A stretch of DNA of 64,000 nucleotides, taken from a virus. Positions 2,405 through 53,400 of this stretch are shown piece by piece. Made by a program: the position numbers and the translations under genes. The stretch lies in IMG/VR virus record IMGVR_UViG_3300045988_131126. One strand, given 5' to 3'. The notes under the pieces are model-generated. The model was given only the letters and a program-made list of their open reading frames with translations, was not told where the DNA came from and did no database searches. Position 1 is the first letter of the stretch. The number at the start of each line of letters is the position of its first letter.

Positions 2405-3559
2405 ATGATTAAAAAATATGCTGATATAGTATATGAATATTTTGATCCATCTAATAGTACAGAATTTCGTACTTTGATGAATCTTAATGAAGAACAACAA
2501 GATCGTGTATTAGCTAACTTAGCTACTAAATTATACGATCATATTGTAAATGAAATTACTGATATTGATTTTGGAGATATTCCAACTTCCAAAGGAGATA
2601 TCACAAGAATTCCAAATTATTTGGATATGGTAGATTGTATTAATATTATACATGATATATGTGTAAGATTTAAACAGCCTACAACTGCTACTGATACATT
2701 ATTTAAAGCAATTCAAAACTTAAAAGATACTAAAGAAATATGGAGAAAGTCATTTGATATTAAAGCTGGGCTAGGCATGAATACTTATAATACTTTAGCT
2801 TTAGGTATCGTATGTAGTGTTTCTCTATTGATTTCTTCTGCTATCGAATTTATTAAGAATCAAGAAGGAGACTTTGAATTCTTAATAAATAAAGTTGGTA
2901 TGCAGAAATCTTTAGATTCTGTATTATTTAAATCATTAAAAGAATTTAACGATGGATGCGCTGATGGTACATTCATGAAGGCTATTATTATTGCCAATAA
3001 TTCTAAAGTAAATATATCTGAAGCTGAAGTTGTATCATTCGACGAAGCTGCTATGATTGATACTTTAGTAAGAACAGCTAAAGAATTTATTAATTCGCAT
3101 GGACCAGGTTTCATGAAAAATGGATTTAATAAAGCAAAAGCCTTTGCTAGTGATATTGCTAAGGGAGCAGATGCTACTATGACAGGTGCTGGTATTGTAA
3201 CTGGTATTGGCGGATTAATTGTGATAGTTGCTGTATTATTACCTACAATAAGAAATGCTGTTCATTGGTTTTTCTCATCAAAACAAAAACTTTCTGATTA
3301 TTTTGCGATTCAGGCTTCATTGTTAGAGATCAATGCTAATAATGTAAAATATATGAATTCTAAATCTTCTACAGAAAGAGAAAAGATTGCTGAAAAACAA
3401 ATGAAATGGGTTTCCAGATTTAGAGAAATTTCTAATAAATTATCTGTAAATATGAGTAAAGCAGAAAAGAGTGCTAAAAATAAATTAGAGCAAGAATCTA
3501 ATCAAAAATTAACTATGAATGACGTAGAAAAGCCAAGTAATGTGTCTGCTTTATTTTAA
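2405..3559 (+). CDS. Hypothetical membrane-anchored protein
   Basis: ORF track. GGAGG SD. Hydrophobic segment GAGIVTGIGGLIVIVAVLLPTI followed by a charged helical tail. Confidence 0.75.
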   Translation: MIKKYADIVYEYFDPSNSTEFRTLMNLNEEQQDRVLANLATKLYDHIVNEITDIDFGDIPTSKGDITRIPNYLDMVDCINIIHDICVRFKQPTTATDTLFKAIQNLKDTKEIWRKSFDIKAGLGMNTYNTLALGIVCSVSLLISSAIEFIKNQEGDFEFLINKVGMQKSLDSVLFKSLKEFNDGCADGTFMKAIIIANNSKVNISEAEVVSFDEAAMIDTLVRTAKEFINSHGPGFMKNGFNKAKAFASDIAKGADATMTGAGIVTGIGGLIVIVAVLLPTIRNAVHWFFSSKQKLSDYFAIQASLLEINANNVKYMNSKSSTEREKIAEKQMKWVSRFREISNKLSVNMSKAEKSAKNKLEQESNQKLTMNDVEKPSNVSALF

Positions 3560-16164: not shown

Positions 16165-16184
16165 TATATAATATTATAGTGAAA
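16165..16184 (+). promoter_or_regulatory. Early-type promoter word (tatataatattatagtgaaa)
   Basis: In the intergenic region upstream of 16306. Confidence 0.45.
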
Positions 16185-35406: not shown

Positions 35407-37731
35407 ATGAACGAAATAGCATTAATGGAAGCAGCCTCTTCTGTATATAAAAGAAAATATCAATGCCCTTACTGTAACGAAAAATATGATAGAATTAAAC
35501 TTGTGGATCATATAGAAAAGAAACATTCGGAATTCATTCCAAAAGACTTTACTGCATCTAGAATAGTATTTAATACCGTAAATAAAAAAGAAAAAGGCAA
35601 ATGCACTATATGTGGAAAAGAATCTCCATGGGACGAAGATAAATGTAGATACGATAGATTTTGCAGTGATAAATGTAAAAAAGCTTACGAGCAACTAGCT
35701 GCAGAAAGATTAAAAAGGGTAAGAGGAATGACTAAGCAAGAAATGCTTAAAGATCCAGAATATCAAAATAATGTAATGCTTGCCAATAGAAGTATATCAG
35801 GAAAATATAAATTTCAAGATGGAACCATAAGAACTTATGTAGGTTCTTATGAGCATAAGTTTTTGGAATTTATGGATAAATTTTTAAATGTAAAAAGCGA
35901 GGACCTAGAAACTCCTGGGCCTATAATAGAATATAAGTTTAAAGGAGAAACTCATAAGTGGATTACTGATGCTTATTATGCTCCATATAACTTAGCATTT
36001 GATATTAAAGATGGCGGAGATAATCCAAATAAAAGAGAAATGCCTGAATATAGAGCTAAACAAATAGCAAAAGAAGATGCTATTAGAAAACAAGGTAAAT
36101 ATAATTATATAAGATTAACCGATAACAAGTTTGAGCAATTGATAGAATTAATGCTTGAATTAAAAGAATTATATATAGAGAATAATGGAGAATATAATCC
36201 TATTATAAGAATCAATGAATCTACTGTATTAGAAAGCAAGAAAGCCAAAGACTTAGGACCTAAAGTATGTAGTAAATGTGGATCTAAAAACATAGGAGTA
36301 TTTTTCCAAGGAGAACCTATCTACAAATGTAAAGATTGCGGAGAATATTTAGGAGTAGTACCATTTAACGAATCTGCTTCAAACGATATAATCCAAAATG
36401 CGTTTAATTCAGTAATTCATACTATTAAATGGTGCAGAATGGATGACTCTGCTTTTTGCAGTATAAATGAATATAACAAGCCAAAGATAATTAGCGATAA
36501 TTCATTCTCTGCTGGTAAATTTGCGTATGAATCTGGAATTGATGCTGTAGTAAAAACTATTAACTATAACAATATTTTCGAAAATGGAAAATATTCTGCA
36601 AGATGTGATAATAATGAATTAATTATCACGATTGATAAATTGAATAACATGAATGAATCATATATTATAGATGAAATATATAAAGGAGATAATAATATGA
36701 TTCGTGAAAATAAATCTACACTTGATCCAAATCATAAAACTAAAAAGACTGATACAACTTTTAAGTTTATAGATCTTAAAGATCCTAGCGTAGATAAATA
36801 TTTAAAACAAGACAAATATTGTACAGAGTATTGGGATTATATTCATAAAAGTTGCATAGGTGAAATAGTTATAGATGCTGATAGCGATTGTATAGCAGGA
36901 TATGTATTCTTAGATAATAAGAAATATCCGGGATTTATAACTCCGGTTGTAGTGATTAAGAAATATAGAGGATATGGATTATCTTCTAAGCTTGTAAAAG
37001 ATGCCATAAATAAATATAAGGCCATAGATTTAACTGTAACGAAAGATAACGAAGTTGCTATTAAATTATATAAAGATAACGGGTTCGTTATAATTGGAGA
37101 CGGTAATTCCAAAAATGAGTATTGGATGAAGCTCAAAAGCAAGCTTACTGATGAAGAGAAATCTAAATCACTAAAAGAATTTTCTATAATAACTCCATCA
37201 TCTGATAAACCTTCTCAAGAAGGATTTATTGGTCATGGATCTTGGAATGCTATTAAGAAAGTTAATGGAGAACCATATAGAGAGCGTGTAGAAGTAATTA
37301 TATTTAATAAGGAATTAGATAAAGTACTTATTGGTACTAGAAAATCTGATGGTAGTGTTAAACTACCTGGAGGTGGTACTGATAAGAATTCTTCATTAGA
37401 GTCTCAAGCTGCTAAAGAATGTCAAGAAGAAGTAAAGGTAAATATAGATAATCTTAAGTATATCGGAAGTTATTCTATGTCTAATGAACAGGCTAGGTAT
37501 AAGGATGATGTATATAAAGGACAATACACGTATCTATATTTAGCAATTTATGATTCTGATTATACTGGATATATTAGACCAGAAGATCTTGATTCTTTAT
37601 ATGATACAGCTGAATGGATGAGTATTTATGATGCTAAAAAATTATTAAAGAAGAGATCTGTAGATTTATACAACTTATTTAACTATAATTATAAATTATA
37701 TATTAATGATTTATCGTATTTAAAATTATAA
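35407..37731 (+). CDS. Multidomain protein: C2H2 and FCS-type zinc fingers, PD-(D/E)xK-like nuclease, zinc ribbon, GNAT acetyltransferase, Nudix-like domain
   Basis: - Zinc fingers: CPYCNEKY..HIEKKH and RFCSDKCKKAY.
- Nuclease: SYEHKFLEFMD..IEYKFKGETHKWITDAYY..LAFDIKD (D..DxK).
- Zinc ribbon: CSKCGS..CKDCG.
- GNAT motif A: VVIKKYRGYGLSSKLV..
- Nudix-like: RVEVIIF..LPGGGTDKNSSLESQAAKECQEEVKV. Confidence 0.6.
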   Translation: MNEIALMEAASSVYKRKYQCPYCNEKYDRIKLVDHIEKKHSEFIPKDFTASRIVFNTVNKKEKGKCTICGKESPWDEDKCRYDRFCSDKCKKAYEQLAAERLKRVRGMTKQEMLKDPEYQNNVMLANRSISGKYKFQDGTIRTYVGSYEHKFLEFMDKFLNVKSEDLETPGPIIEYKFKGETHKWITDAYYAPYNLAFDIKDGGDNPNKREMPEYRAKQIAKEDAIRKQGKYNYIRLTDNKFEQLIELMLELKELYIENNGEYNPIIRINESTVLESKKAKDLGPKVCSKCGSKNIGVFFQGEPIYKCKDCGEYLGVVPFNESASNDIIQNAFNSVIHTIKWCRMDDSAFCSINEYNKPKIISDNSFSAGKFAYESGIDAVVKTINYNNIFENGKYSARCDNNELIITIDKLNNMNESYIIDEIYKGDNNMIRENKSTLDPNHKTKKTDTTFKFIDLKDPSVDKYLKQDKYCTEYWDYIHKSCIGEIVIDADSDCIAGYVFLDNKKYPGFITPVVVIKKYRGYGLSSKLVKDAINKYKAIDLTVTKDNEVAIKLYKDNGFVIIGDGNSKNEYWMKLKSKLTDEEKSKSLKEFSIITPSSDKPSQEGFIGHGSWNAIKKVNGEPYRERVEVIIFNKELDKVLIGTRKSDGSVKLPGGGTDKNSSLESQAAKECQEEVKVNIDNLKYIGSYSMSNEQARYKDDVYKGQYTYLYLAIYDSDYTGYIRPEDLDSLYDTAEWMSIYDAKKLLKKRSVDLYNLFNYNYKLYINDLSYLKL

Positions 37732-39150: not shown

Positions 39151-42100
39151 GTGCCAATATTTGTTGACGATACAGAAGCTGTTAATGAAAAAGTTAACAG
39201 TTTCTCAGCATTCATATCTACTAAAATAATAATTGATGAAAAAGAAAATAAGATATTTATCAAAGGAATTAATTATGATAAATTTCTTATAAGAATAAAA
39301 GATATGTATGAAACTAAATCGGTAAATAAATTATTTACAAAAAACTATACTCCATTTACACAAAAATTATGGGAGAAAAAGAAAATACCTGGATATAAGA
39401 GAAAAGTTACAAATTTAGAAGTAGATTTATTTTTTGCTAGCGAATTATATAATATATTAATGCAATTAGCTGATTATTATAATCTCAGATATTATCGTAG
39501 AATGGCAGAATATATAAAGAAAAATACTTATTTGGATAATCTCGATAAAAATATTGATGTAAAAGTTGATATAAATAGACTAAATAGTATATTGAACGAA
39601 GATTACAAGCCTAAAGATTTTCAAGAAGAATTTATCAAAAAATATTTCGAATATAAAGAAATATATGATCTAGATGGGTATATATTATCGTTTGATCAAG
39701 GTTTGGGAAAGACATTTACCGCAGCTTGTATATCGGAACTTATACATCCAGATCAAACAATAATAGTATGTATGAATACGCTTAAAGAGAACTGGGCTAA
39801 TGAATTAAGATTATATTTCAAAAAATATAATGATATCGAAAGATTCAAAAGAGAAGTATATGTATATGGAGTTTCTAAACCAAAAGAATACTCCAACGAT
39901 ACAAGATATATTATCGTAAATAATGAATCAATAAATAAAATATTTCCATTAGTTAAGAATACAAATTCTACTATGATAATAGTCGATGAATGCCAAAATT
40001 TTAGAAATTTAGATTCATTGCAAACCAAAAACATGCTCAAATTAAAGCAAATAACTAAGTCCAAAGACAATCTTATGATGTCCGGTACACCTATAAAAGC
40101 TAATCCGAGCGAAATAGTACCAGCTATGATGATGATTGATAGAACCTTCACTTTAGATTTAGCCAAACTATATATAAAAGCATTTACAAGTAATACCGAT
40201 ACATTGTCTGATGTGGTTCAGACAAGGTTTAATAGAACTATATATAGAAAAACAAAAGATCAAGTTTTGGATTTACCATCTAAAACTGTAACTAATTTTA
40301 AATTAGAGTATAAAGATGAAGATCCTTATTTGATGATAAATGTAAAAAAGAAAGTAGCGGATAGATTTCAAGAAATACTTGAAAGCTATAAAGACGAGGT
40401 AGATTCTGTTAAAGATGAATTTAGAGAAACGACTTTAAAATATTCATCACAAGATAGAACTACTACGTTAGACTATATAAAATTTGTTGATAAAGGACAA
40501 GATTATGAATCTGTACATGATTCGTTATATGACTTATATGATGGATTTATCAAGAATAATGTATATCCTAATATAAAAGATAAAGATGAATTAAAAAGAT
40601 ATAAATACGTAGTAAGTGTATATGTATATATAACTCAAAAATGTTTTTTCTTAGCTATGGGAGAAGTTCTACCAAAAATAAAAGCTAAAGCATTTAATGA
40701 GTTATATGATAATAATAAAGATCTTATATATAAAATGATCAATAATAATCCAAAGAAAACAGTTATTTTTTCTACTATAGTAGAAGTTGTAGATCATATT
40801 TGTGATGATCTTAATAAAAACGATATAAAAGCTGTAAAGATAACTGGATCTGTAAAAAATCGAATGAATATTATTAATCAATTTAGAGAAGATGATACTG
40901 TAGATGTATTAGTAGCAACCTCTCAAACTATGGGAACTGGTGTTACATTAGTAGAAGCAAACCAAATGATGGTATTTTGTCCTCCGTATAGAAAAGCAGA
41001 TTTTGATCAAGCCTGTGATCGTATATATAGAATAGGACAAACTCATCCGGTAAATATTTATAATATAATAGGATCTACTTCATCTAAAGACATAACTACA
41101 AGAATGACAGATATATTAGATTGGTCAGATCAAATGGTTTCTTCTGTATTAGATAATATAGTTAATGAAGAAGCTTTAATAGAAAAATATAAAGGAGAAG
41201 ATACTAATATGATCATGTTTGAAGAAGCTATATATGATTCTAAACATACAGAACCGGTATATATAGTATTGATGCATACCGGAACTATGCTGGCTAATAC
41301 CATAAAGGCTGTAACAAAAGATGAATTTTCCCATTCATGTATATCATTTACAAGTAAACTTGATCCGATGTTTTCTTTTGGTAACAAGAAAACGTCATAT
41401 ATTGCCGGGCAACCTGGATTTGTTCAGCAAAATACCAAGGACGAGTTTTTTAAGAAGAAAAAATCTGTTTATGAAATATATGTAATGTTTGTAAGCAAAA
41501 GTCAAAAACAGAAGATGATAGATAGATTAAAATGGTTCAAAGAAAAAGATAAATATTTAGGGTATGATATTATAGGATTAATTAAATATAAATTAGGCAT
41601 ATCTAGCGATGATAATCTTAAAAAATGGTTCTGTTCAAGATTTGTAGCAGAATTATTAGGCCAAGCTGAAGATTTGGGCAGGGATGCTAGTTTATTTAGT
41701 CCTCAAGATTTTAAAAATGATTTGAATTTTATTTCTTTAGTTAATAAAGGCGATGATTTATATAATTATGATTACAAAGTGACAGAGCGAAACTTAAAAA
41801 AAATAAAGGAAGGAGATTATTCGTATAACGAATCTGATGCAAATATGGGAATAATAGAAAAAGCTTTACTAGAAATGGACAATACAGATGATATTAAAGA
41901 ATCAACTTTATTAACTGAGACACTAGAAGATTTTCTTAATAACGGTATGACTGTAAGTGAATCTTTAGCATTAAATGAAGCCACATTATCTTCTAAAGAA
42001 AGAAAATCTTTACCTGATAAAACATTTGGTTTACCAGAAAAAAGAAAATTTCCTTTAAACGATTACGATCATGTAATTTTAGCTATTAAATTCTTCAATA

Positions 42101-43737
42101 GATGCGACAAGAAAGATCAAGAGGAATTAGCTAAAAATATAATTAAAGCTATGAAAGTATATAAAGTTCCTACTGATAAGATAGGTAAAAATAATAAATT
42201 AAGAAATTATATAAATGGGTCTTTAAAGGAATTTGCTATTCATGAAGGATTGCTTAGTAAATATAAAACAGAAAAAAGAGAGATAACTCCTAAAGTTTCT
42301 AAAAAAGAAGCTGCTAATAAAATGGTGAATTATTTAAATAGCTTACTGAATGGAAAATATAAGCAATTTAAAAAGTATATAGAAATTGCAATTGATGATA
42401 AATATATAACCAATTTTATTAAAGATTCAGATTCTAGATATGTTCATATAGATTTATACTATTTCAATGTACCTGAAAAAGATCAGGATATACAGATTAT
42501 ATCATACGGAAAATGCAAAACATTTGATGATTATGAAGATAAGCTTCCTAAAAACATGATAGACGATCTATTTGGAGACCTCGAAAAATTTGCGAAAAAT
42601 TTATCCGGAGACGGTGTATATGATGTATACAGTATTCCCGATCAAGGATGGTCTTTAGAAGGAACCGTAGGATTTGATTATACAAAAAAATATGAAACTG
42701 TTAAAGTTAATAAGAAAACAGGAGAAGTAATGAAAGAATCAGTTTTGGATGAGGGATTATTCAAAAAAGATCCTTACAAAGATACAATTAAGAAATACAG
42801 AAAATATAATCCTTCAAGACCAGATTGTGATAAAACGATGAAAGACATAGAAAATACTCTGGTTAACGATATAGCTAAAAATATTAGAACGAAATTAATT
42901 AAAGTTGAAAATAATGAAGACGACACTGTATCTGTAATATTTAAAACAGATAAAGTATCTGGGTTAAATAAAAGATGTTTTGACGCTGTTATTAGATCTA
43001 AAGGAGTAACACTTCTAAATGAATCGTATAAGCTAATTACAGTTAAATATAAAGATTGTATTTTACTTGTATCGACTAGTGATGAAGATGATGACGATAT
43101 CGAATCAATTTTTAGAATAGATCTATCTGTTTTATATTGTAAAGAGTATTCTGATGCTTGCAAGATTTCTATATCATCTATAGAGGTTTTATGTAAAAAT
43201 GTAAATATAACATATACGTCTTTAGTAAATCCTGCGTTTGTGTCATTCTCCGTAGCCGGAGGAGGAAATGCTTATACAGATAAATATCCGAATATAGAAA
43301 AAAATACCGGATGTAAAATAATACCTAAAGCATTCGCGATATATGTATTTTCTAATAATGCAATACATGAATCTGTAGGAGTTCCTGTTGTAGGTCTTAC
43401 TAGCAAAACACCAGTAATAGTAGATAATATGTATAATAATGCATTTACTTCATTAGAAATGGATGAAGAAATAATACGTAATTGCATGATGTCTTCTACT
43501 AAAGCATTACTAAATAAAGAGGATAAATTCTACGTTCCTTATATTCCATATATACAGGAATCTTTAAATATAGATCCTAACATAGGATTTTATAGAGATA
43601 GAAATGGTATATTTGTAATGAACGAGAATACCAAATTAAGATCTCCTTCATATAATGACGTAGATGATATAGATGATAGAACTATATTATATGTAACATA
43701 TGGAGAATTAAACGATTCTAAATTAAACGATTTATAA
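39151..43737 (+). CDS. SNF2-family helicase fused to a permuted papain-like (YiiX/YaeF, C92-type) domain and a long C-terminal region
   Basis: SNF2 motifs: FDQGLGKTFTA, IIVDECQNFRN, MSGTPIKANPSEI, TGVTLVEANQMMVFCPPYRKADFDQACDRIYRIGQ. Then FSHSCISF...KWFCSRFVAELL, with His before Cys as in permuted NlpC/P60. GTG start. Confidence 0.8.
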   Translation: MPIFVDDTEAVNEKVNSFSAFISTKIIIDEKENKIFIKGINYDKFLIRIKDMYETKSVNKLFTKNYTPFTQKLWEKKKIPGYKRKVTNLEVDLFFASELYNILMQLADYYNLRYYRRMAEYIKKNTYLDNLDKNIDVKVDINRLNSILNEDYKPKDFQEEFIKKYFEYKEIYDLDGYILSFDQGLGKTFTAACISELIHPDQTIIVCMNTLKENWANELRLYFKKYNDIERFKREVYVYGVSKPKEYSNDTRYIIVNNESINKIFPLVKNTNSTMIIVDECQNFRNLDSLQTKNMLKLKQITKSKDNLMMSGTPIKANPSEIVPAMMMIDRTFTLDLAKLYIKAFTSNTDTLSDVVQTRFNRTIYRKTKDQVLDLPSKTVTNFKLEYKDEDPYLMINVKKKVADRFQEILESYKDEVDSVKDEFRETTLKYSSQDRTTTLDYIKFVDKGQDYESVHDSLYDLYDGFIKNNVYPNIKDKDELKRYKYVVSVYVYITQKCFFLAMGEVLPKIKAKAFNELYDNNKDLIYKMINNNPKKTVIFSTIVEVVDHICDDLNKNDIKAVKITGSVKNRMNIINQFREDDTVDVLVATSQTMGTGVTLVEANQMMVFCPPYRKADFDQACDRIYRIGQTHPVNIYNIIGSTSSKDITTRMTDILDWSDQMVSSVLDNIVNEEALIEKYKGEDTNMIMFEEAIYDSKHTEPVYIVLMHTGTMLANTIKAVTKDEFSHSCISFTSKLDPMFSFGNKKTSYIAGQPGFVQQNTKDEFFKKKKSVYEIYVMFVSKSQKQKMIDRLKWFKEKDKYLGYDIIGLIKYKLGISSDDNLKKWFCSRFVAELLGQAEDLGRDASLFSPQDFKNDLNFISLVNKGDDLYNYDYKVTERNLKKIKEGDYSYNESDANMGIIEKALLEMDNTDDIKESTLLTETLEDFLNNGMTVSESLALNEATLSSKERKSLPDKTFGLPEKRKFPLNDYDHVILAIKFFNRCDKKDQEELAKNIIKAMKVYKVPTDKIGKNNKLRNYINGSLKEFAIHEGLLSKYKTEKREITPKVSKKEAANKMVNYLNSLLNGKYKQFKKYIEIAIDDKYITNFIKDSDSRYVHIDLYYFNVPEKDQDIQIISYGKCKTFDDYEDKLPKNMIDDLFGDLEKFAKNLSGDGVYDVYSIPDQGWSLEGTVGFDYTKKYETVKVNKKTGEVMKESVLDEGLFKKDPYKDTIKKYRKYNPSRPDCDKTMKDIENTLVNDIAKNIRTKLIKVENNEDDTVSVIFKTDKVSGLNKRCFDAVIRSKGVTLLNESYKLITVKYKDCILLVSTSDEDDDDIESIFRIDLSVLYCKEYSDACKISISSIEVLCKNVNITYTSLVNPAFVSFSVAGGGNAYTDKYPNIEKNTGCKIIPKAFAIYVFSNNAIHESVGVPVVGLTSKTPVIVDNMYNNAFTSLEMDEEIIRNCMMSSTKALLNKEDKFYVPYIPYIQESLNIDPNIGFYRDRNGIFVMNENTKLRSPSYNDVDDIDDRTILYVTYGELNDSKLNDL

Positions 43738-47256: not shown

Positions 47257-47370
47257 TGCACCTAATTCCCTTCTTTGAGAGCTTTATTTACTTATTTGTA
47301 CGTACAAAAATGATTCCGTAATATCTTTATTTTTGTCAAAATTATAGATCTTAATAAATCCTAATACAAA

Positions 47371-47390
47371 TATATATTATATAGGTGAAA
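47371..47390 (+). promoter_or_regulatory. Early-type promoter word (tatatattatataggtgaaa)
   Basis: Followed by AATAAAAAGAAAGGAG, a leader shared with the copy at 48154. Confidence 0.5.
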
Positions 47391-47414: not shown

Positions 47415-47720
47415 ATGGCTAAATTTATAACAGACGATACCAAAGATTCATTGGCAAAAGATTTTTATGATTTTTGTAACGGGATAATTTCTCAAGTTGA
47501 AAGTTTACATGGTATTTTTAATGACGATGTGTATAGTAATATTATACACGAATTTATCAACGTAGTTAAAAAAGAATATGAATTATACGATAAGTTTGTA
47601 GGACCTATTAATCACGTAAGAAGATTCTATCCAAATGCTACTTATAAAAATACCATTAATAAACTAAATAAACTAGATCCCGAAGTAATACGTAAAGAAA
47701 TAGAACGATACGGAGATTAA
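47415..47720 (+). CDS. Hypothetical small protein (101 aa)
   Basis: ORF-track frame 47385..47720. I moved the start to ATG 47415 (AAAGGAG SD). The GTG at 47385 lies inside the promoter word. Confidence 0.7.
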   Translation: MAKFITDDTKDSLAKDFYDFCNGIISQVESLHGIFNDDVYSNIIHEFINVVKKEYELYDKFVGPINHVRRFYPNATYKNTINKLNKLDPEVIRKEIERYGD

Positions 47721-47760: not shown

Positions 47761-48093
47761 ATGGGACGTTATCGTAATATTAATGTGTGTGAAAATTTTG
47801 GCTGGATATCTGATTCTATTGTACTGAAAGCCGAAGAAGAATTGCTAGACTATATAAATAAAACGATAGAATATTTGGACAATCTCTGGAAAAGCGGAAA
47901 AATATCAGCTGAAGACTTTAAATCAATTATACTCAACTATGAAGTTCAATATGATTTATATACAAAAACTTTTCTTGATACTTTTGGTTATTCCATAGAA
48001 GTAGAAGAGGATAAATGTAGCTTTGTCAAATATTTTAATAAAGCTATAGATAACGATTATTATACCTATTCATATGGATATATAAAAATATAA
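47761..48093 (+). CDS. Hypothetical small protein (110 aa)
   Basis: ORF track. AAAGGGG SD. Confidence 0.7.
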   Translation: MGRYRNINVCENFGWISDSIVLKAEEELLDYINKTIEYLDNLWKSGKISAEDFKSIILNYEVQYDLYTKTFLDTFGYSIEVEEDKCSFVKYFNKAIDNDYYTYSYGYIKI

Positions 48094-48153
48094 TTAATGA
48101 CGAAAACAAGCTACCTGAATAGCTTATTTTCAGTTTATTATTTTTATGAGTTA

Positions 48154-48174
48154 TATATATCATATATGTGAAAA
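48154..48174 (+). promoter_or_regulatory. Early-type promoter word (tatatatcatatatgtgaaaa)
   Basis: Upstream of the MazF-like gene. Same leader as the copy at 47371. Confidence 0.5.
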
Positions 48175-48196
48175 TAAAAGAAAGGAGTATTATATT

Positions 48197-48853
48197 ATGG
48201 ATAATACAAAATATTTAAAAAGTGATATTGTTTCTAAACCAGTTATTAGAAGATGGGATCTTCATTATTGCTCATTAGATCAGGATATACTTCCTGATTC
48301 TGGTTCTGTTTTAATTGGGAAAGCTAATAGGCCATGCTTAATAGTTAGCTCTAATGAATATAATCAGATGTCAGATAAAGTATTAGTAATGCCTTATTGC
48401 AGTAATAACAGAGATGATTTAACAGATGAAGAGTACGTAAAGCAGGCTGCAGAAAGAGGAGAAACTTTAATACCAATGGTATTAAATAGAAATGCCAGAT
48501 CATTTCTTATCATTGATCAACCTAGATTAATTGCAAGAAAGATGCTCAGAGGATATGTAGGAACACTTGATGTAGAAGCAAACGAAAAATTAGCAATTAA
48601 AGTAACGGAAGCTGTATTTAATTATATGATTGATCCTGAAGTGTTTACGAAAACAGAAATATTCAAATCAATGGTTAACGAATACTTTGCTAATAATTTT
48701 ACTGTTGATGCTACAGACGAAAGTATTTCAACTCCTCCAAAAGATGTCGATGAAAAACCAAAGTCGGTCCCTAATACTATTCAGGAAGATTACGGAATAA
48801 TATGCATGAGAAGATCTAAAGAGGAAAATGCTAAATATGCATTAGCAATTTAG
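48197..48853 (+). CDS. MazF/PemK-like (CcdB/MazF fold) protein with a C-terminal extension of about 90 aa
   Basis: RRWDLHYCSLDQ..GSVLIGKANRPCLIVSSNEYNQMSDKVLVMPYCSN...FLIIDQPRLIARKMLRGYVGTLDVEANEKLAIKV parallels E. coli MazF GDLIWVDFDP..GSEQAGHRPAVVLSPFMYNNKTGMCLCVPCTT...LADQVKSIAWRARGATKKGTVAPEELQLIKAKI. I moved the start to ATG 48197 (AAAGGAG SD). Confidence 0.65.
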   Translation: MDNTKYLKSDIVSKPVIRRWDLHYCSLDQDILPDSGSVLIGKANRPCLIVSSNEYNQMSDKVLVMPYCSNNRDDLTDEEYVKQAAERGETLIPMVLNRNARSFLIIDQPRLIARKMLRGYVGTLDVEANEKLAIKVTEAVFNYMIDPEVFTKTEIFKSMVNEYFANNFTVDATDESISTPPKDVDEKPKSVPNTIQEDYGIICMRRSKEENAKYALAI

Positions 48854-48883: not shown

Positions 48884-49447
48884 ATGTTAAAGGGAGAGGG
48901 AAAGTACGGATTGAAGGAATTTGTAAAGAAAGAAGGTGTAAATTATCATAATAGAAATTTAAAAACTGGAGCATGTTTTGAGCAATATGATAGACAGGGT
49001 AACCTTATATATTATAATTGCTCATTCTTGCTTGCATCTAATGCTGTATTAAATTATAAACAGGAATATGCTTATAATCATATAGCACATATAGTATCAT
49101 ATAGAGATTCTGATGGGGTTAAATGGGAAAAGCAGTATACTCCAGAGGGATTTGATATTGTATACAAAAATAAAATATTTAAAGTAGCTTTTAGATTTAA
49201 ATATAAAACCAATAAAATCATAGCTATAGAAAGCAATGGTCATAAAGATATTATAGATATATCCAAATGTAAATCTATATCAATAATAAACGGAATAGAT
49301 TTTTCTGATAGATTCTTATTAGAAAACAAAAGTTTATTCGATTATTTTATATCAGATTTACCAGCGACCGATTTACAAGAAAAAATAATAGCTTTTAAAG
49401 ATGATGAATTATCCGATAAAGTATTAAATTATTTGAAAGAGGTATGA
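48884..49447 (+). CDS. Hypothetical protein with one YD-repeat-like unit
   Basis: ORF track. FEQYDRQGNLIYY and SYRDSDGVKWEKQY. Confidence 0.6.
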   Translation: MLKGEGKYGLKEFVKKEGVNYHNRNLKTGACFEQYDRQGNLIYYNCSFLLASNAVLNYKQEYAYNHIAHIVSYRDSDGVKWEKQYTPEGFDIVYKNKIFKVAFRFKYKTNKIIAIESNGHKDIIDISKCKSISIINGIDFSDRFLLENKSLFDYFISDLPATDLQEKIIAFKDDELSDKVLNYLKEV

Positions 49448-49450
49448 CTA

Positions 49451-49645
49451 ATGGAACATTCAAAATCTACTAAAAAAGATCTAATGAAACAAATGATCAA
49501 GAAATTAAATAAGCAGGATAAAGAAATAAACCAATTAAAATTGCTACTCTATAATAATATTCAAACTAAGAGATTAATTCAAGATGAAAAACCTTCTCGC
49601 CAAATTAGTTTTCTTAGAGGGGAGGATGAAACATTTTATGATTAA
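49451..49645 (+). CDS. Hypothetical small basic protein (64 aa)
   Basis: ORF track. AAAGAGG SD. Confidence 0.6.
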   Translation: MEHSKSTKKDLMKQMIKKLNKQDKEINQLKLLLYNNIQTKRLIQDEKPSRQISFLRGEDETFYD

Positions 49646-50354
49646 ATCATTCTATGCTGTTTTGGATTTAAAGAATCCAGATTTAGTTATTCAGAAAATA
49701 GATCCAGTAAATTTTAAACTATATAGAAAATGGAAGAATGGAGTAGAAGAATGGATCACATTCTATTATCTTGCAGATGGAAAACGTATTCTTATTAAAG
49801 AATATAAAAACTCTACTGGATACGAATTTAAGATTGATACCGAAAATAAAGAATTCATGTATAATGATAATCTTGGTAATTGGTATAAATATAATATAAT
49901 TACCCATGATTACGAATCTGTAGACTTAACTCATAGATATGATAATAATGGAAATCTTATATATTATAAGTCTCCAGAAGGAGTAGAAGAATCTTATCAG
50001 TACGATGACAATAACCTGATACAGAAATATGAAAAGAGAGTAGATGGAGAAATAGTATTAACCCGTACATATCAAAGATACATAGCGAGAGGTTCATCAG
50101 AAGAATATTTTATGGATGAACCTTTAACTCAAATTCAAGAGAATACTAAAGATTTATACTCTGAAAGAACTTATGATATGAAAGGAAGAGAGATTCTTTA
50201 TGAAGACGAAGATAGAAACGGAGATAGAATAATGGTTGGAACTAAATATGAAGATAAAAGAGCACATGTAATGGTGTGGAAGAATGGAAAGTTTATTTAC
50301 GAATACTATGTCAAAGAAGGAGACGAAAATTATGGAAAAGGATTCAAAAAATAA
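49638..50354 (+). CDS. YD-repeat-like protein
   Basis: ORF-track frame 49584..50354. The start is probably ATG 49638 or 49626, after GGGGAGG. Repeat units: HRYDNNGNLIYYKSPEGVEESYQYDDNNLIQKYE and RTYDMKGREILYED. Confidence 0.6.
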   Translation: MIKSFYAVLDLKNPDLVIQKIDPVNFKLYRKWKNGVEEWITFYYLADGKRILIKEYKNSTGYEFKIDTENKEFMYNDNLGNWYKYNIITHDYESVDLTHRYDNNGNLIYYKSPEGVEESYQYDDNNLIQKYEKRVDGEIVLTRTYQRYIARGSSEEYFMDEPLTQIQENTKDLYSERTYDMKGREILYEDEDRNGDRIMVGTKYEDKRAHVMVWKNGKFIYEYYVKEGDENYGKGFKK

Positions 50355-53315: not shown

Positions 53316-53400
53316 TTAAATATCTTCCTTTCTTTTAGAATTATTCTTATGTGTTCGCAAAGATAATATATCATTAAAACTAGTATAAGGTTAAAATAAG

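Follow-up and report, generated by a model that had tools for sequence, protein, structure and literature searches.

A putative early MazF/PemK-type endoribonuclease without a recognisable antitoxin gene in an AR9/PBS1-like jumbo phage

MazF toxins are understood almost wholly as halves of bacterial toxin-antitoxin pairs, and this raises the question of what a protein of this type may do when it is encoded by a virus and no antitoxin gene is recognised beside it. Such a gene was found in the virus record IMGVR_UViG_3300045988_131126 of the IMG/VR database, whose 64,000 nt were analysed as a whole (hereinafter, the window). The gene is located on the plus strand (gene position 48197-48853, stop codon included) and encodes a protein of 218 aa. 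A first-pass annotation made from the sequence alone described the product as a phage-encoded protein with the MazF/PemK fold and offered three roles for it, namely a host shut-off endoribonuclease, a self-neutralised fused toxin and a decoy. The results presented below suggest, with about an even chance in our estimation, that the gene codes for an early, antitoxin-free MazF-type endoribonuclease of AR9/PBS1-like jumbo phages. The label 'PemK-like protein' is already public for this sequence; the gain is the genomic context and the architecture of the protein, not the assignment of the fold.

The similarity of the product to MazF/PemK proteins was confirmed to be far above chance. PF02452 (PemK_toxin) was the sole Pfam model that matched the protein, with 33.6 bits (E = 5e-8) over aa 19-136, the curated gathering score of this model being 23.1 bits. 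The core domain (aa 19-136; 48251-48604, plus strand) is placed by this match, by fold matches, by residue conservation and by the ratio of nonsynonymous to synonymous substitution rates (dN/dS). A weak match to PHROG 1936, 'MazF-like growth inhibitor', was also found (E = 6.6e-6, 27 bits, PHROG positions 9-122 of 188). Among the relatives of the protein, PemK_toxin was matched by 14 of 15 and PHROG 1936 by 19 of 36. Modeling with AlphaFold 2 (AF2) from the single sequence gave a predicted local distance difference test (pLDDT) value of 39 and this model was discarded; the model built on the 36-sequence family alignment (A3) reached a pLDDT of 80-94 over aa 11-170. A Foldseek search of the latter model against the PDB returned MazF, EndoA, PemK or MoxT chains in all 50 of the 50 matches listed, with E of about 1e-6 and a template modeling (TM) score on the target of 0.69-0.78, and 97 matches had E <= 0.001. 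Thus, both the profile and the structure search recovered the CcdB/MazF fold, as the first-pass annotation had proposed, and all peptide strings quoted there were present in the translation of the open reading frame (ORF) 48197-48853 on the plus strand. The phmmer search of the protein against PDB sequences gave no match, and the family profile was needed to reach the MazF chains; the PADLOC and NCBIfam scans of the protein gave no match either. With about 17-20% identity to bacterial MazF, the product is a real but highly divergent MazF/PemK-type domain. Since CcdB and MazF have the same fold, the protein could also be a CcdB-like gyrase poison and not a ribonuclease (RNase). This is considered extremely improbable: PemK_toxin is the only Pfam match, the listed top structural matches are all MazF-type RNases and the MazF RP motif with the catalytic Arg is present.

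The position of this motif was established by several alignments. In the HMMER alignments of the family profile, R45-P46 aligned with the catalytic Arg of the S. aureus and M. tuberculosis MazF, and the same RP motif was seen in the N-terminus of the S. aureus protein as given by the HMMER alignment itself. Using hhalign with a B. subtilis MazF (BsMazF) sequence, R45-P46 was aligned with the catalytic Arg of this protein (BsMazF R25, EcMazF R29) and Q108-x-R110 was aligned with its EQIR motif. The family alignment comprises 36 members with 20-30% identity overall, and K42, R45, P46 and C47 did not vary in any of the 35 members covering these positions. The invariant core set of the domain includes K42-x-x-R45-P46-C47, P66 and S69, the last position being Ser in 12 and Thr in 23 of the 35 covering members. 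To this set the Q108-x-R110 motif can be added, in which Q is retained in 25 and R in 31 of the 36 members. The conservation of Arg, Ser/Thr, Lys, Pro and Q-x-R in a family of such low identity is the pattern expected of a retained active site. In comparison with the 86%-identical homologue from the locus L001, dN/dS was 0.027 for aa 1-145, 0.24 for aa 146-218 and 0.077 for the last 23 aa; the MazF-like domain and the terminal peptide are therefore strongly constrained and the linker between them is not.

To evaluate the origin of the gene, its genomic context and the distribution of its relatives were considered. The window encodes a divergent family-B DNA polymerase (PolB), a protein similar to the beta subunit of multisubunit RNA polymerases (RNAP) and helicases, and its G+C content is 29%. 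PolB was closest to those of the Bacillus phages AR9, PBS1 and Internexus (28% identity), and the window is assigned to the AR9/PBS1-like jumbo phages. An exhaustive phmmer search among 1.84 billion representatives revealed 15 relatives of the protein, and a profile search revealed 38; bacterial MazF proteins were not reached by phmmer with the window protein. The family consists of about 40 sequences, all of them metagenomic and almost all of 170-400 aa, and its members were found on contigs of 205-269 kb. All genomic contexts examined were jumbo-phage-like contigs, with no case of residence in a bacterial chromosome, plasmid or prophage among them, and distant family members are located near genes of RNA polymerase subunits. 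The IMG/VR scan returned two near-identical loci only. Among 50,697 genomes of cultured or deposited phages, neither tblastn nor megablast revealed any relative, whether the query was the region, the window protein or the distant member P0015. A two-pattern peptide scan of 185,579 species-representative genomes of bacteria and archaea, in which the patterns were taken from the window clade (A1) and had a close range, also found no relative.

The assumption of early expression is based on a promoter word. Early promoters of AR9, which are used by the virion RNA polymerase (vRNAP), were defined experimentally and have the consensus AAATATATATTAT-N6-G(+1) (PMC5312081). The word TATATATTAT-N6-G, which is the core of this consensus, was found in six exact copies in the window, each of which lies between genes and points towards a gene downstream of it. 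The transcription starts predicted from the core-word scan are 33900, 47387 and 58919 on the plus strand and 45667, 15515 and 14433 on the minus strand, and the distance to the start of the downstream gene is 26-77 nt for five copies and 329 nt for one. Seven more intergenic copies with one mismatch have predicted starts at 16181, 17391, 37835, 58521 and 48170 (plus strand) and at 53356 and 28278 (minus strand). One of the copies of the word is aimed at the divergent DNA polymerase gene. With such a recurrent promoter word, the early genes of this uncultured phage could be mapped.

The copy located before the MazF-like gene is the variant TATATATCAT-ATATGT-G (48154-48170, plus strand); its predicted +1 is G48170 and precedes the ATG codon by 27 nt. 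It can also be written as TTATATATATCAT-ATATGT-G, with one mismatch in the 10-nt core and three relative to the full AR9 consensus. A perfect AR9-type early word, AAATATATATTAT-ATAGGT-G (47368-47387, plus strand), stands at the head of the plus-strand cluster, approximately 800 nt upstream of the gene. Between the upstream ORF and the variant word, a hairpin with a T-rich run was found (48095-48140, plus strand; RNA fold -10.6 kcal/mol, z = -2.96), which is weak and terminator-like and contains only two G-C pairs, so that it was missed by the terminator scan. A strong terminator and a perfect promoter copy are located directly 5' of the gene in the loci L001 and L002, and near-perfect copies precede it in L003, L004 and L008. 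The terminator is likewise present before the gene in L004 and L008, and the short contig L003 carries the promoter word without a readable terminator. L015 has the same variant as the window. In the 98%-identical relative L014 (positions 2870-3010 compared with 48060-48200 of the window), the hairpin is deleted together with a portion of the promoter word, so that the upstream ORF ends almost immediately before the 5' leader of the MazF-like gene; in L010 and L006 no own promoter was found before the gene. A scan for sigma-70 promoters gave no more matches than shuffled sequences. Thus, the own early promoter word reported in the first-pass annotation is partly confirmed: the word corresponds to the AR9 consensus and is perfect in L001 and L002, but the copy in the window is degenerate by one mismatch. 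As judged from the sequence, early expression of the family, through its own word or the upstream one, appears to be well supported; TATATATTAT-N6-G precedes the gene in L001-L004 and L008 and corresponds to the AR9 early consensus. A palindrome, TGTAAATTTTACA, was noted at L004:5930-5960, just 3' of the predicted start of an HTH-bearing gene (helix-turn-helix, HTH); it is a candidate operator and was not seen in the other loci.

The predicted transcription start also bears on the start codon. The UniProt entry A0A8S5UF15 ('PemK-like protein', Myoviridae sp. ctcyQ27), found through a BFVD match, is 100% identical to the window protein and is annotated as a protein of 235 aa starting at ATG 48146, the extra part corresponding to 48146-48196. 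This reading is unlikely because the homologues begin at the Met equivalent to 48197, the ribosome-binding site AAAGGAG (48181-48187, 9 nt from ATG 48197) serves this codon and G48170 lies 3' of 48146. The 218 aa form is therefore probably the correct one.

Next, the neighbourhood was searched for an antitoxin. AbrB, RHH, PHD or Xre domains were found neither in the two upstream ORFs (101 and 110 aa), nor in the downstream ORFs (187, 64, 256, 144 and 87 aa), nor in the neighbours of the relatives. The absence of an obvious MazE partner, as stated in the first-pass annotation, is borne out by these results, also for the two small upstream ORFs, which were described there as having no AbrB/MazE-like features. 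The gene is parted from the upstream ORF by the hairpin and the promoter word, and in L001 a strong terminator is found at this place; an adjacent co-transcribed antitoxin, as expected for a type II toxin-antitoxin module, was not found. The tblastn search of the neighbours of distant-clade members against the window matched the MazF-like protein alone. The neighbours in the distant clade are different proteins, and the 110-aa and 187-aa ORFs of the window clade were not recognised among them. Hence, no partner gene appears to be conserved across clades, and nothing besides a fused or split HTH travels with the MazF-like gene.

A further feature of the protein is its length, which exceeds that of MazF by about 100 aa, and in particular its C-terminal part. 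In the AF2 model, the helix corresponding to the C-terminal helix of MazF occupies aa 130-144 and is followed by additional helices at 147-150 and 154-167; one more helix, aa 77-86, is inserted relative to MazF. The helical extension (aa 146-170; 48632-48706, plus strand) is specific to the window clade, has a pLDDT of 74-91 in its helices and contains D146, E148, V149, F150 and F156, which are conserved in this clade. The remaining tail (aa 171-218; 48707-48850, plus strand) is predicted to be disordered (pLDDT about 33), is mildly acidic, contains four Pro residues and ends with the conserved peptide EDYG(I/V)ICMRRSKEENxKYALxI. Hence, the extra length and the acidic, proline-containing tail noted in the first-pass annotation are present, but what was called there an 'extra C-terminal domain' consists, in the model, of two helices and a disordered tail and does not form a folded unit.

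The relatives show where this extension comes from. Their usual architecture includes the MazF-like domain, a linker that is acidic in many but not all members, a basic GGRKP arm and one or two HTH modules. The HTH region of the relatives matched the Pfam models HTH_24, HTH_23, HTH_28, HTH_29, HTH_7 and Sigma70_r4_2 as well as PHROG 125, 'DNA invertase' (2.6e-13), and is of the Hin/invertase type. These C-terminal regions form a variable DNA-binding array: tandem HTH modules were found in P0026, P0028-P0030, P0035-P0037, P0039, P0041, P0045 and P0046, and a CxH...CxxC (zinc-ribbon-like) insert was found in three proteins (P0027, P0031 and P0032). In two independent assemblies (L008:6001-6914 and L009:579-1492) the gene is split, and a MazF-like ORF of 172 aa is followed, after a gap of 150 nt, by an HTH ORF of 81 aa. 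The hidden Markov model (HMM) of the HTH module recognised the separate 81-aa ORF of L008 with 41.7 bits; in the approximately 50%-identical relatives P0033, P0034 and P0038 the module is degenerate (about 5-15 bits, 13.7 bits for P0034), and in the window protein there was no match (-0.8 bits). In the MAFFT and hhalign alignments, aa 200-214 coincided with the initial columns of the HTH, and its first helix was the only part covered by the last 20 residues. The terminal extension is thus the remnant of a DNA-binding module and does not represent a novel domain. Six distinct close homologues, one of which represents 139 sequences, have the same truncated form without HTH, which is accordingly stable. 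The window clade has lost the HTH and belongs to the family, in the phmmer and profile searches, through its N-terminal domain alone. Being fused in most members, split in L008 and L009 and absent in the window protein, the HTH seems to be dispensable.

This architecture allows another explanation, according to which the protein belongs to a self-regulated module resembling a fused toxin-antitoxin pair. The acidic linker or tail would fold into the RNA groove in the manner of the MazE C-terminus, and in the relatives the HTH would correspond to the DNA-binding, autoregulatory half of an antitoxin. The nuclease would be released by a trigger, e.g., a rival phage, a defence of the host or a certain stage of the infection. 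Most members do combine the MazF-like domain, the acidic linker and the HTH, the split halves in L008 and L009 are adjacent in the toxin-then-HTH order, and the AF2 model places helices 147-167 against the domain with good confidence. Type II antitoxins also consist of a DNA-binding domain and a disordered neutralising segment, and MazF pairs with several DNA-binding folds, as described in PMC3879964 and PMC2701414; moreover, a transcription factor is known to control the solitary Myxococcus MazF (PMC2701414). However, the domain is under strong purifying selection in the window clade even though the HTH is absent there, and conservation is lowest in the linker (dN/dS 0.24), which lacks an acidic character in some members. 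The domain order is reversed relative to a normal antitoxin, and two HTH modules or the zinc-ribbon-like insert resemble a DNA-targeting array, not a neutraliser. Taken together, the fused module is considered unlikely, being a live explanation for the HTH-bearing relatives and a weaker one for the HTH-less window protein.

Among the three roles listed at the beginning, an early RNase involved in host shut-off or RNA turnover fits the data best. The decoy is the least favoured because the catalytic Arg and the neighbouring Ser/Thr are invariant and the purifying selection is very strong. A number of observations weigh against an early RNase, however. The canonical catalytic Thr (BsMazF T48, SaMazF T47, EcMazF T52) aligns gaplessly to position 68, where the window clade has Cys and most relatives have Arg, and the invariant Ser/Thr is located one residue later, possibly through a register shift at the end of a strand. 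The catalytic dyad is accordingly not strictly verified in the alignments: Arg is aligned and the Thr position is offset by one. The promoter copy in the window has a T-to-C change in the conserved core, at a position unvaried in the other 12 intergenic copies, and AR9 vRNAP was reported to be sensitive to single promoter changes (PMC5312081). The sense strands of the window do not avoid UACAU or other 4-6-mers beyond codon effects (for TACAT, 86 observed and 78 expected; only stop-codon effects were seen), so that a signature of self-protection is not observed. In addition, a simple mRNA interferase would not need the HTH fusion that most relatives have.

The substitution at position 68 is also an argument for a non-nuclease function, in which the MazF-like domain would be a dimerisation or nucleic-acid-binding module of an early DNA-binding regulator, and the window version would be a binding protein or a decoy, with a defence sensor or a host MazE-type antitoxin as possible targets. 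The Hin/invertase HTH and the GGRKP arm of the relatives are typical of sequence-specific DNA binders, the distant members are encoded near RNA polymerase subunit genes, and a palindrome is located just past the predicted start in L004. On the other hand, K42, R45, P46 and Ser/Thr 69 are invariant and Q-x-R is kept across the whole divergent family. A decoy would be expected to track the host MazF, but no bacterial MazF was found by phmmer, and the HTH is dispensable in the window clade. A non-nuclease function thus seems rather improbable.

The preferred reading therefore is an early antitoxin-free RNase. The homology, the fold, the conserved residues, the lack of a recognisable antitoxin, the promoter word and the family architecture are established by the data presented above, and we infer the RNase activity, the early timing, the target and the role as follows. 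The phage RNA polymerase delivered with the virion would transcribe the gene early, either from its own variant promoter or from the perfect copy located approximately 800 nt upstream. The protein, which is probably a MazF-like dimer, would cut single-stranded RNA at a short sequence by means of R45 and the neighbouring S69. An antitoxin would be unneeded because a lytic phage need not keep the cell alive. The likely role is an RNA-level takeover of the host or a timed turnover of transcripts, with RegB of phage T4 as a functional analogue. In evolutionary terms, an ancestral nuclease may have been joined by an acidic linker to one or two Hin/invertase HTH modules, and the window clade may have lost them and kept the helices and the terminal peptide. 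A broader and only tentative proposal, in which we have rather little confidence, is that AR9-like jumbo phages possess their own MazF branch with an HTH-tethered nuclease acting as a DNA-guided or self-regulated RNase at certain loci in the early stage of infection, and that the window form is a freed host shut-off RNase, i.e., a counterpart of RegB with the MazF fold.

A comparison with known systems shows both similarities and differences. The protein shares with the MazF/EndoA/PemK of Firmicutes (B. subtilis MazF, 4MDX and 4ME7; S. aureus MazF, 4MZM) the common fold, PF02452, the Arg of the RP motif and Q-x-R. It differs from them in its low sequence identity, the inserted helix 77-86, the two extra helices, the tail, the Thr offset, the absence of a recognisable MazE gene, and its context of a lytic-type jumbo phage with an early promoter word. 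The proteins of PHROG 1936 and long phage 'PemK-like' proteins (BFVD matches of 170-266 aa; gp171 of the Brochothrix phage A9) are also phage-encoded and have a MazF-like N-terminal part and a C-terminal extension, but the window protein matches this PHROG weakly and has no tblastn relative among the 50,697 phage genomes. The literature search found no published functional tests of phage 'PemK-like' proteins, with mentions at the annotation level only, and no paper on MazF-HTH fusions or a jumbo-phage MazF family.

Three systems can serve as analogies. T4 RegB is an early phage endoribonuclease which cuts mRNA sequence-specifically without an antitoxin; the structure of RegB resembles the RelE/YoeB toxins, and the analogy is functional only, since the fold differs and there is no homology. 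CapRel is a fused toxin-antitoxin protein with an N-terminal toxin and a C-terminal regulatory part that acts in anti-phage defence. It provides a model for the fused module, although the folds are unrelated. The solitary MazF-mx of Myxococcus xanthus has no cognate MazE and is coupled to the transcription factor MrpC (PMC2701414). In contrast to the phage protein, MazF-mx is cellular and developmental and its regulator is encoded elsewhere, whereas the HTH of the phage family is fused in the relatives, split in L008 and lost in the window.

The MazF branch described here is deeply diverged and strongly conserved, is mostly fused to DNA-binding modules and, in the contexts read, occurs solely in uncultured jumbo phages. 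With an HTH that can be fused, split off or lost, the family represents a natural experiment on the viral domestication of a toxin domain. AR9 infection is reported to lower host mRNA (PMC5312081). If the protein is active, it would be a candidate cause of this unexplained fall in AR9-type infection and a new source of sequence-specific RNases.

The genes surrounding the MazF-like gene were also characterised. The first gene behind the perfect early promoter encodes a protein of 101 aa (47415-47720, plus strand) with no family match and is absent at this place in L001. It is followed by an ORF of 110 aa ('LWKSGKISAEDF'; 47761-48093, plus strand), a conserved upstream neighbour in the window clade (49% identity in L001, 26% in L010 and L011) with no Pfam match above the cut-off. 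Immediately downstream of the MazF-like gene, a conserved neighbour of the window clade encodes 187 aa (48884-49447, plus strand), with 97%, 54% and 59% identity in L001, L010 and L003, respectively, and no Pfam match. Both of the latter ORFs were considered as candidates and rejected. The 110-aa ORF is not a displaced HTH or antitoxin (hhalign probability 0.9%, HTH HMM 4.8 bits). The 187-aa ORF is not the carrier of the missing HTH, because hhalign gave a probability of 0.6%, there is no Pfam match, the HTH HMM score is 3.0 bits and this ORF also co-occurs with an HTH-bearing homologue in L010. The 187-aa ORF and another downstream ORF (49584-50354, plus strand) have a common 'YD..GNLIYY' motif, which is reminiscent of YD-type repeats (BLASTP E = 0.011 over 14 aa); no family matches were found for either of them.

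Two other large ORFs of the window, both on the plus strand, have unusual compositions. An ORF of 774 aa (35407-37731) combines an endonuclease-like N-terminal part (PHROG 15137) with a GNAT acetyltransferase and a NUDIX hydrolase in a three-way fusion. A 1528-aa helicase of the SNF2 type is encoded at 39151-43737, and its aa 697-858 matched a PHROG similar to enoyl-CoA hydratase/crotonase.

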